Below, in pieces: positions 13,132-14,490 of a stretch of DNA of 64,000 nt (positions are counted from its first letter, which is position 1; each line of letters begins with the position of its first letter). Source of the DNA: Escherichia coli (lineage in GTDB: Bacteria; Pseudomonadota; Gammaproteobacteria; Enterobacterales; Enterobacteriaceae); assembly GCF_003334335.1 (NCBI RefSeq), contig NZ_QOWQ01000017.1; one strand, written 5' to 3'. The position numbers and the translations under genes are program-made. The notes under the pieces were generated by a model. The model was not told the DNA's origin and did no database searches. It worked only from the letters and a program-made list of their open reading frames with translations.

Positions 13132-13254
13132 AAAAAGTGGCAATGTATGGATAAAGTCATTTTTTATTCAAATATAAGGAACTTAATATTTAAAAAATGT
13201 TCCATACAATTCCTCATCATAAATGACACCGTAGCACACAAGGAGCAAGTAGCG

Positions 13255-13905
13255 ATGCGTGAAATGAATCAGTTAGTAAATACTGAAGATTCAGCCTGGC
13301 CAATAATCCAGAACTGGTTAAAAGACGCCACAAACCATACCGAACTCTTACCGGTTAATAAAGATTTAGCCGAAACCGCACTTTATCAATTACAGGTGAC
13401 AACAAAATCACCGATGGGTGCGCTTGTCTATGGCTCCGGAGGTCTGCTGATTGATAATGGTTGGTTACGCATAGCAGGATCTGGTCACCCCCGGTTGCCA
13501 CGAGATCCAGTAAGTTGGACACAACGCCCTGAATTCGCAGGCGTGCGGGCTTTACCCATCGCTGACGATGTCGCAGGGGGAATTTTTGCTCTTAATGGTG
13601 GCGATCTTGGGGAAGATACTGGCTGCGTTTATTATTTTGCGCCAGATACGCTGAATTGGGAAAGTCTGGAAGTTGGATATTCTGAGTTTCTTCAGTGGGC
13701 ATTATCCGGTGATTTAGATACCTTCTATGAAAATGTACGATGGCAGCAATGGCGAGAAGACGTAATAAAATTATCGGCAACGGAAGCCTTCACGTTCTAC
13801 CCTTTCTTATGGGTACAAAGTGAAGAAGCAAGAACAAGAAAAGTTATTTCGCTTACTGAACTCTGGGAAATGCAGTATCAAATGAAAGAAACATTCACGC
13901 AATAA
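13255..13905 (+). CDS. ybfG: DUF2625-family protein (YbfG-like), 216 aa
   Basis: ATG at 13255 after aaggag; MREMNQLVNTEDSAWPIIQNW...; the ORF track's longer start (13147) lacks an RBS. Confidence 0.6.
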   Translation: MREMNQLVNTEDSAWPIIQNWLKDATNHTELLPVNKDLAETALYQLQVTTKSPMGALVYGSGGLLIDNGWLRIAGSGHPRLPRDPVSWTQRPEFAGVRALPIADDVAGGIFALNGGDLGEDTGCVYYFAPDTLNWESLEVGYSEFLQWALSGDLDTFYENVRWQQWREDVIKLSATEAFTFYPFLWVQSEEARTRKVISLTELWEMQYQMKETFTQ

Positions 13906-13916
13906 GACATGTTCAG

Positions 13917-13937
13917 GTCCGGGTTTCATTCCCGGAC
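13917..13937. terminator. Hairpin between convergent ybfG and ybfP
   Basis: gtccggg-tttcatt-cccggac. Confidence 0.4.
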
Positions 13938-13945
13938 TCACTATT

Positions 13946-14440
13946 TTAATGTGTATTTATCGCTTTCAATTCTTGCTGGCAATTTTCTGACTGGCAGCGT
14001 CGTAACTCAATAATCCCGACATGCATCATCGAGCCAAAAAATCCGCTTTCGCTGACATAATCCTCATTGACTATCGGTCGAGTGCCGGGCTTGCCCTGGC
14101 AAACCCGCATAAAAAATGAGGTGTAGCATTGCCAACCGGGATTTAAACCGACCTTTTCTTGTGCTGACATATTATGAAGATAAGTAAGTTCTTTTTCGTT
14201 CCCGCCTGACAACTGCCAGCGGCGGGTATTATCAGGTAAGTTATCACCACGGCAATTTGTCTTACACCGGAAAGGTGCAATATTTACCGCAATGCTACCC
14301 GTTAATCCTCTGGTTTTATCTTTAGGGGTCAGTAACCAGTCGCCAGCTAATGATGATTGTTCAGGTTGGGCGCATGCAGTCAGCAGTAATGTGGCGGTAA
14401 TTAGTGACACTATGACGACCAGACTCCTGTTGGTCTTCAT
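13946..14440 (-). CDS. ybfP: Lipoprotein YbfP
   Basis: 164 aa; signal peptide with LTAC lipobox (MKTNRSLVVIVSLITATLLLTAC). Confidence 0.8.
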   Translation of the reverse strand: MKTNRSLVVIVSLITATLLLTACAQPEQSSLAGDWLLTPKDKTRGLTGSIAVNIAPFRCKTNCRGDNLPDNTRRWQLSGGNEKELTYLHNMSAQEKVGLNPGWQCYTSFFMRVCQGKPGTRPIVNEDYVSESGFFGSMMHVGIIELRRCQSENCQQELKAINTH

Positions 14441-14490
14441 TGGGATTTCCTTGAGCTACTCAGTTTGTTGACAAAGTGTTCGTTGTTTTT

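Follow-up and report, generated by a model that had tools for sequence, protein, structure and literature searches.

In Escherichia coli K-12 MG1655, the chromosome next to pgm carries ybfP (b0689), ybfG (b0690/b0691) and ybfI (b4636), of which the first is annotated as a lipoprotein gene and the other two as pseudogenes. The literature likewise treats ybfG as a pseudogene, and studies in K-12 use its knockout as a neutral control. In K-12, RACE (rapid amplification of complementary DNA ends) identified 28 sigma-E promoters, that of ybfG among them; promoters of this class have GGAACTT and TCAAA motifs and an A/T-rich upstream window (Rhodius et al., PMC1312014). Overproduction of sigma-E induces ybfH-ybfG 3.9-fold and 25.2-fold, and the entry is listed directly after degP (Bury-Moné et al., PMC2731931). 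The present work concerns the same locus in another E. coli genome (NCBI RefSeq assembly GCF_003334335.1), namely positions 13140-14450 of a 64,000-nucleotide stretch of contig NZ_QOWQ01000017.1, called here the window. In this stretch ybfG, which encodes a member of the DUF2625 family, and ybfP converge between a remnant of kdpE and a bacterial interspersed mosaic element (BIME).

Regarding the proteins, the described systems closest to YbfG are the Tdi immunity proteins, which, including the orphan copies of genomes that lack the toxin, bind Ntox15 DNases, split the fold of these enzymes and so protect the cell (PMC10470768). Other points of comparison are the wider SUKH superfamily (SMI1/KNR4, YobK, Lin2918, RhsPI, Syd), the clusters of orphan immunity or acquired interbacterial defence genes and, for YbfP, the calycin-like periplasmic lipoproteins and inhibitors (PliC/MliC, potempins, bacterial lipocalins). 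Much of the locus was known before from the reference annotation and the literature: the two genes, the remnant of kdpE, the fact that ybfG is a pseudogene in K-12, and its sigma-E promoter. The new elements are the structural classes of the junction and their frequencies, a polarity argument based on outgroups, and a confident prediction of a SUKH/Tdi-like fold for DUF2625, a family with no assigned function whose name is absent from every paper of the searchable literature.

A strain-variable segment between potE and pgm

The pair corresponds to the already annotated ybfG and ybfP, present in the window as the K-12-type allele of a strain-variable accessory segment of 1.69 kb. An earlier note on this DNA had described an intact 216-residue DUF2625 open reading frame (ORF) and a 164-residue lipoprotein ORF, convergent between the kdpE remnant and the BIME, and all of these features are found at their positions (Table 1). 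Gene order and lengths are those of MG1655, with 1759 of 1761 positions identical over 12900-14660 and three base differences over 12,001 base pairs (bp). The two differences in 12900-14660 both fall in ybfG, which has the same 651-nucleotide length in MG1655: TGG is replaced there by TAG at codon 70 (window base 13463), giving W70amber, and the second change, G109V (window base 13580), affects a glycine that is invariant among 40 aligned DUF2625 proteins. The statement in the note that the gene is disrupted in K-12 annotations and uninterrupted here was accurate, Trp70 and Gly109 being both retained in the window. The exact K-12 amber allele (searched as a 61-mer) occurs in 364 genomes, of which those sampled are K-12 laboratory derivatives, and 1284 genomes are one base away from that 61-mer.

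The third difference lies in speF, where codon 406 (window base 10607) is GAT (Asp) in the window and AAT (Asn) in MG1655 (D406N); the four further E. coli loci that were compared have GAT as well. All three differences alter the protein and are K-12-derived, and the window has the common allele at the sites checked, that is, the amber site and speF codon 406.

Base composition sets the segment apart from its surroundings. Positions 13140-14450 contain 43.9% GC against 51.2% in the window (3.7th percentile of equal-sized windows), and the leader, at 13140-13260, falls to 32.2% (1.4th percentile). The GC content of third codon positions (GC3) of ybfG, 0.369-0.373, is the lowest of 51 long non-overlapping ORFs and that of ybfP, 0.448, the fourth lowest, while the neighbours speF, potE, pgm and kdpE reach 0.49, 0.58, 0.61 and 0.60, respectively. 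In codon indices calculated against the genes of the window itself, the two genes hold the second and third lowest places, the lowest belonging to an ORF (59710-60153) that is possibly not a real gene. The AT bias that the note had claimed for the pair, and especially for its leader, is real but moderate.

Compared with the commonest arrangement, in which potE, one terminator and pgm follow one another, the window carries the extra sequence 12947-14607, flanked on both sides by the terminator hairpin GTAAAAAAGGGCGAT...CGCCCTTT (12916-12946 and 14608-14638). The two copies form a 31-nucleotide direct repeat, 81% identical and 1692 nucleotides apart. Where the segment is missing, the terminator is present once, in the version of the pgm side and with the flank of the potE side before it. 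Directly inside the left repeat stands a fragment (12972-12989) resembling a repetitive extragenic palindrome (REP), followed by the kdpE remnant, and the junction filler to which this fragment belongs (12947-12987) forms an inverted repeat with the REP at 14490-14507 and is weakly similar to BIME sequence of other strains. The remnant becomes homologous to kdpE at a sharp boundary, 12988, and remains so up to the kdpE stop codon, sharing the same TGA. Since it is 87-91% identical to the last 144 nucleotides of seven kdpE alleles that differ mutually by 3.5-7% over this stretch, and since it has an in-frame stop, the remnant is an old, decaying fragment. At the other end, the BIME consists of extragenic inverted REP palindromes, folds as a long hairpin (-43.2 kcal/mol, z -4.5) and has at least 40 matches in an E. 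coli genome, one of them next to fepA. REP copies are found at the breakpoints and also follow kdpE in the kdpE-ybfP-pgm and kdpE-pgm arrangements described below.

Two sub-threshold Rfam matches overlap these boundaries: naRNA4, a REP-derived RNA, at 14457-14521 on the minus strand (41.5 bits against a gathering value of 59.5, over the first REP), and Vibrio MicX at 12909-13094 on the plus strand (34 bits against 75, over the potE terminator and the kdpE remnant). Both are most likely REP or terminator look-alikes.

The segment is far from universal in the species. By blastn, ybfG is present in 1853 of 5426 complete E. coli genomes (34%), and ybfP is found in 2113 (39%); the whole kdpE-to-pgm interval is of the K-12 type in 1817, and potE is joined directly to pgm in 3164 (58%). 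Neither a composition like that of the flanks nor synteny in all relatives is observed, clearly so in both respects. At least five arrangements of the interval exist, and the following five were read directly. In O104:H4, APEC O1 and EC17GD31 the order is kdpE-speFL-speF-potE-55 bp-pgm; the second arrangement is the K-12 type of the window; the third, kdpE-REP-ybfP-BIME-pgm, is devoid of speF-potE and ybfG (NY1601 and 4FM; by subtraction, about 260 genomes in all); the fourth, in ES5, is reduced to kdpE-BIME-pgm. In the fifth, found in three genomes (CUWW10, GF4-3 and KL53), kdpE is fused directly to the ybfG leader, with ybfP and pgm following. These three genomes could be survivors of an ancestral arrangement or recent kdpE/ybfI recombinants that deleted speF-potE; the 100% identity of CUWW10 to the window suggests a recent recombinant. 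Secondary damage is also seen: insertion sequences have repeatedly struck the interval, inside ybfG (IS1), nearby (IS1414) and between ybfP and pgm (IS200C), frameshifts occur in some strains, and an internal deletion of 252 bp has cost GPEC1031 the start and the promoter of ybfG.

In both CUWW10 and GF4-3 an intact kdpE runs into the ybfG leader, speFL-speF-potE is missing, and the switch from kdpE-type to remnant-type sequence falls within the last 20-40 nucleotides before the stop. The ybfP allele of E. coli strain 4FM (4249-4743 of its locus) differs from that of the window by 13.6% of nucleotides and 36 of 164 residues, with a synonymous divergence (dS) of 0.28. This is far above the divergence of the flanking pgm and points to deep allelic lineages within E. 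coli.

The outgroups give a direction to these differences. In Citrobacter koseri the order is kdpE-speFL-speF-potE-pgm with nothing between potE and pgm, and Salmonella enterica has the same order with an unrelated 161-residue Pyridox_ox_2 gene at the potE/pgm spot (contig 14016-14501), so speF-potE beside pgm is ancestral for the group. The potE/pgm terminator is a site that gathers different lineage-specific genes in different genera. Among 100,044 species representatives no close relative of ybfP was found, save an E. coli-identical contig in a metagenome-assembled genome. Between the window and strain SMS-3-5, the dS of ybfG is 0.07, against 0.24 for the flanking potE and 0.14 for pgm. 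Because potE adjoins pgm in C. koseri as well as in 58% of E. coli, the segment is probably derived; this order, the distance of the YbfG homologues, the lack of a close YbfP and the low ybfG dS together favour a derived, laterally spread, strain-variable insertion at a REP-rich recombination junction. As in horizontally acquired islets, the composition is atypical, only 34-39% of genomes have the genes, and neither C. koseri nor Salmonella has them at this site. The hallmarks of mobility are lacking: there is no tRNA gene in 5000-20000 and no mobility ORF, and the flanking repeat is the duplicated terminator, at 81% identity, not an attachment (att) site.

Just upstream of the kdp operon, the Salmonella contig carries at 1-1012 a gene with T6SS_HCP and Tle1-like phospholipase domains; type VI effector cargo thus occurs in the same chromosomal neighbourhood of a related genus. 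The metagenome-assembled genome mentioned above is labelled Collinsella sp., and its 1.9-kb contig JAIJJM010000630.1 encodes a YbfP 100% identical to that of E. coli, almost certainly through contamination of the bin with E. coli.

As for the order of events, the kdpE remnant shows that ybfG once followed kdpE immediately, in an arrangement devoid of speF-potE that a few strains still have, and that the present layout is a recombinant mosaic. In the simplest history, the ybfG-ybfP pair would first have adjoined kdpE in a lineage that lacked speF-potE. A chromosome bearing speF-potE would then have recombined with this one, so that the potE terminator came to abut the interior of the resident kdpE and the kdpE remnant and two copies of the terminator were left behind. 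Two points weigh against such a derived insertion. The direct repeats would equally permit a clean deletion, and polarity was set with C. koseri and Salmonella, outgroups more distant than E. albertii, E. fergusonii and the cryptic clades. The segment might instead be ancestral E. coli DNA; in that case repeated deletions between the terminator copies would have produced the potE-pgm form, and the low GC would fall within the normal spread among poorly expressed genes. Recombination within GTAAAAAAGGGCGAT, common to both repeats, would turn the K-12 form exactly into the potE-pgm form; deletions do happen here, as indicated by the apparently fresh kdpE/ybfI recombinant CUWW10 and by the loss inside ybfG in GPEC1031; and ybfP alleles diverged by up to 13.6% imply that the gene is old within the species. 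An ancestral segment is nevertheless unlikely, since potE and pgm adjoin directly in C. koseri and are separated by an unrelated gene in Salmonella, no close YbfP or YbfG occurs outside E. coli, ybfG has the lowest GC3 of the 51 ORFs and a dS below that of its flanks, and the kdpE remnant shows that the segment joined potE secondarily. The insertion reading of the locus, together with the mechanism proposed below for YbfG and YbfP, is as a whole the best explanation and slightly more likely than not.

Table 1. Features of the kdpE-pgm interval and their positions in the window (a point marks features given without strand).
Feature	Position	Strand	Remarks
kdpD, kdpE	kdpE 8119-8796	+	
speFL, speF	speF 9392-11590	+	
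potE	11587-12906	+	
potE-side terminator hairpin, left copy of the 31-nt direct repeat	12916-12946	.	-18.4 kcal/mol, z -5.0
junction filler with REP-like fragment (12972-12989)	12947-12987	.	inverted repeat with 14490-14507, weak similarity to BIME sequence
kdpE 3' remnant, K-12 pseudogene ybfI (b4636; annotated 12982-13131)	12988-13131	+	in-frame stop
AT-rich ybfG leader with sigma-E promoter	13132-13254	+	30.9% GC
ybfG, intact 216-residue DUF2625 ORF	13255-13905	+	start ATG 13255
intergenic hairpin, likely terminator	13916-13938	.	8 bp, -14.8 kcal/mol, z -3.2
ybfP, 164-residue lipoprotein ORF	13946-14440	-	lipobox
BIME: inverted REPs 14490-14524 and 14560-14589, AT-rich linker between	14490-14589	.	
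pgm-side terminator hairpin, right copy of the direct repeat	14608-14641	.	-21.5 kcal/mol, z -6.5
pgm	stop at 14654	-	
seqA	next after pgm	-	

Elsewhere in the window, a second cluster of low GC3 (0.39-0.48, with low codon indices) extends over 46769-52862. It contains gene pairs of 483 and 235 residues and of 475 and 235 residues, both on the minus strand, plus ORFs of 184 and 327 residues. By size and position it is presumably the djlC-ybeU-ybeT-djlB-ybeR-ybeQ paralogue cluster of K-12.

The ybfG leader and the independence of ybfG and ybfP

The leader (...aaGGAACTTaatatttaaaaaatgtTCCATAcaa...) contains a promoter with the -35 element GGAACTT at 13178-13184, a 16-nucleotide spacer and the -10 element TCCATA at 13201-13206. 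An AT-rich UP region (approximately 13140-13177) precedes the -35, and a Shine-Dalgarno sequence, AAGGAG (13240-13245), lies nine bases before the ATG at 13255. A strict pattern search in the form GGAACTT-N15-17-TCNNA gave 0 matches, since the -10 reads TCCAT, and the promoter is accepted on the published RACE evidence; the motif together with the RACE and induction data places ybfG in the sigma-E regulon. The leader is also well conserved, with 2 substitutions in 123 nucleotides between alleles that have a 3% coding difference, and the promoter and the Shine-Dalgarno sequence are kept in diverged alleles. The AT-rich leader is therefore the known sigma-E promoter with its UP region and not a recombination scar, and its extreme AT content needs no special explanation. 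A longer, 252-residue reading of ybfG from the ATG at 13147 (ORF 13147-13905) was rejected: this codon is upstream of the mapped promoter, and the Shine-Dalgarno sequence precedes the ATG at 13255.

The two genes converge 40 bp apart around the hairpin at 13916-13938. They are independent genes and not a two-gene unit, because they converge on a shared hairpin, have separate upstream regions, are never found together outside E. coli, and ybfP occurs without ybfG. A functional cassette that moves as a whole, of the effector/immunity or sensor/effector kind, would agree with their adjacency, their common AT-richness and their co-occurrence in about 1850 genomes. It is nonetheless very improbable, given that transcription is convergent from separate promoters, that about 260 genomes have ybfP without ybfG, that DUF2625 homologues elsewhere never have a YbfP-like neighbour and the relatives of YbfP stand beside unrelated genes, and that YbfG is cytoplasmic and YbfP exported. 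On this same evidence, the pair was rejected as a toxin-immunity or operonic unit. The proposal in the note that the pair belongs to a recombination-prone junction is supported by the extra segment, the 31-nucleotide repeat, at least five arrangements and the REPs at the breakpoints, with the refinements that the leader is a promoter and that the two genes do not form one unit.

The N-terminus of YbfP, MKTNRSLVVIVSLITATLLLTAC, is a signal peptide ending in the lipobox L-T-A-C (LLLTAC), in agreement with the lipoprotein pattern [LVI][ASTVI][GAS]C, although the Pfam LPAM_1 match reaches only E 7.7. The alanine at +2 points, by the usual sorting rule, to the outer membrane. A word-indexed search of 5.8 billion proteins returned E. 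coli-type YbfP sequences only, and when 1.84 billion representatives were searched exhaustively with HMMER, four more true relatives came up, at 22-37% identity, next to a few large repetitive proteins that look spurious. The relatives keep the signal peptide and the motifs GWxC, CxG, P, S..G, G..E and C....C, an indication of a truly folded periplasmic domain with two disulfides; their gene neighbours are unrelated (glnE for one relative, a Dus/aldo-keto-reductase region for another). The structural model (predicted local distance difference test, pLDDT, 77) is an eight-stranded barrel with a C-terminal helix, and a profile search of the PDB with the YbfP alignment gave chance-level hits. The similarity to calycin-like lipoproteins and inhibitors is one of generic fold with no sequence relationship, so no function can be transferred from them. 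YbfP is a near-orphan, exported, calycin-like binding module, probably anchored in the outer membrane. The predicted small, disulfide-stabilised beta-barrel lipoprotein may, as a guess, serve in ligand or inhibitor binding in the periplasm. The ratio of nonsynonymous to synonymous divergence (dN/dS) of ybfP is 0.17-0.46. Since ybfP is downstream of seqA-pgm on the same strand, it may receive read-through transcription.

Two other propositions about YbfP did not hold. A divergent sequence, P0137, considered as a protein of another species, is an ordinary E. coli one with a frameshifted C-terminus, and nothing was found in support of the label "putative pectinase" given to ybfP in one pan-genome table.

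Fold and candidate role of YbfG

YbfG has no signal peptide and is cytoplasmic. It matches Pfam DUF2625 (PF10946) with E 1.5e-87 over residues 4-202 (model 1-206/207) and NCBIfam NF008494 (PRK11408) with 512.7 bits against a cut-off of 278. The nearest homologues outside E. coli, in Pantoea, Kosakonia, Erwinia, Citrobacter, Yersinia and Dickeya, are 50-57% identical, and those of Bacteroidota and Burkholderia 45-51%, the Enterobacterales proteins being judged no closer. Within E. coli, the dN/dS of ybfG is 0.20-0.27, compared with 0.04 for potE and 0.025 for pgm, which indicates purifying selection, weaker than on these two genes. With dN/dS well below 1, both ybfG and ybfP appear to be functional coding sequence.

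An AlphaFold2 model built from 40 homologues (pLDDT 90, predicted TM score 0.88) has the alpha/beta fold of SUKH proteins. The top 21 Foldseek matches are all SUKH proteins, with TM scores of 0.54-0.62 to Tdi1, Tdi2 and Atu4351 over the full length, and Syd and Knr4 are also among the structural matches. YbfG is thus confidently predicted to be a SUKH-fold protein, with the Tdi immunity proteins as its nearest structural counterparts. Extra helical elements set it apart from other members of the SUKH superfamily, and for this reason its full length aligns better with the Tdi proteins, which have two lobes. The differences from the Tdi proteins (Tdi1, 8g0k, Bacteroides; Tdi2, 8fzz, Phocaeicola; Atu4351, 6itw, Agrobacterium) are also clear: identity is 9-13%, YbfG belongs to DUF2625 without a match to DUF1851, and there is no Ntox15 gene nearby. 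Up to E 10, Pfam returned only DUF2625 and a weak SMI1_KNR4 for YbfG, with no Tdi-type family, among which GAD-like is presumably to be counted. With the orphan immunity and acquired defence clusters, ybfG shares the condition of a stand-alone gene of immunity fold in strain-variable DNA of atypical composition, and some DUF2625 homologues sit among other small ORFs that we take to be of immunity families. It differs from them in being a single gene and not an array, with no recombinase or mobile-element gene, and to our knowledge sigma-E control has not been described for orphan-immunity systems.

The genomic contexts of the homologues are varied. In Citrobacter the gene lies in a run of small ORFs including DUF596 and in Flavobacterium it has DUF2314 and SUFU-family neighbours; these two clusters are presumably immunity-array-like. 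NCBIfam scans of the unannotated neighbours in both genera gave nothing meaningful. In Yersinia it belongs to a mobile island, in Dickeya an insertion sequence is next door, and in Pantoea and Burkholderia the surroundings are uninformative. Such contexts are compatible with immunity without being compelling.

By analogy with the Tdi proteins, YbfG is most likely a toxin-binding orphan immunity protein. It would bind and inactivate an incoming toxin domain, probably a nuclease from the type VI, Rhs or contact-dependent inhibition (CDI) system of a competitor; in E. coli its expression is wired to the sigma-E envelope-stress response, and K-12 has lost it through W70amber and G109V. The precise form of this idea, namely a broadly conserved orphan immunity protein against a nuclease-type effector (Ntox15-like or with another polymorphic toxin domain), induced through sigma-E by the damage of an attack, is put forward tentatively and is in itself doubtful. 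A number of observations weigh against immunity. The SMI1_KNR4 match, over the ADDVAGGIFALNGGD core, is non-significant (E 0.14); a Pfam scan of the 40 homologues for weak SUKH, DUF1851 or GAD-like matches found none; a profile search of the PDB with the YbfG alignment gave chance-level hits and no SUKH chain; and the structures of YbfG and YbfP are themselves predictions. No toxin gene adjoins ybfG here or its homologues in seven other contexts, PADLOC has no hit for YbfG, and neither PADLOC nor PHROGs has one for YbfG or YbfP. In addition, the 40-protein alignment has a mean column identity of 57% with 27 residues invariant across phyla, a conservation far beyond that of typical immunity families, which evolve fast, and one that could reflect a conserved cellular partner or a catalytic site. 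Finally, sigma-E regulons consist mostly of envelope-biogenesis genes, and the sigma-E promoter is absent upstream of the DUF2625 genes of Pantoea, Citrobacter, Yersinia and Dickeya.

Several of these points would fit better a stress protein of the sigma-E regulon whose SUKH fold would bind a partner of the cell's own and which would help against envelope damage. The SUKH protein Syd is reported to bind SecY and Smi1/Knr4 to act in cell-wall regulation, and both Syd and Knr4 were recovered as structural matches. The very high conservation across phyla includes invariant clusters of Asp, Arg, Asn and Gly, and DUF2625 genes stand alone, with no toxin neighbour, in eight of eight contexts. Moreover, the promoter is RACE-mapped and the 25-fold induction is second only to degP in its table (PMC1312014, PMC2731931). 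This role is a genuine possibility, if still improbable on balance: a gene that two thirds of E. coli lack and that is inactivated in K-12 hardly serves a core stress function, its sigma-E promoter is specific to E. coli, and the patchy distribution with mobile or immunity-array-like contexts fits accessory defence better. Far less credible is the view that an old transfer left both genes behind without a function and that they are decaying, though not yet broken here. The nonsense change and the missense change at an invariant glycine, which make up two of the only three K-12 differences in 12 kb, the use of the knockout as a neutral control, and the insertions of IS1, IS1414 and IS200C, internal deletion and frameshifts in other strains could all be understood in that way. 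They are outweighed by the low dN/dS of both genes, the more than 1200 genomes that keep the non-amber allele, the strong conservation of DUF2625 across phyla, the persistence of the YbfP cysteine motifs in relatives only 22-37% identical, and the conservation of promoter and Shine-Dalgarno sequence in diverged alleles.

Implications

The analysis explains the foreign look of this stretch and presents the potE/pgm terminator as a small hotspot whose cargo differs among enterobacterial lineages. It also shows that the ybfG of the K-12 reference is dead, whereas most strains with the gene have it intact. The predicted SUKH/Tdi-like fold and the published strong dependence on sigma-E lead to a testable functional hypothesis for a widespread family, and a function for DUF2625 might reveal a stress-inducible immunity. 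If YbfG is indeed an antidote, interbacterial immunity would in this case be inducible and not constitutive, the envelope damage caused by type VI or contact-dependent attack turning on its synthesis, and the loss of the gene in K-12 would make the standard laboratory prey strains artificially sensitive.

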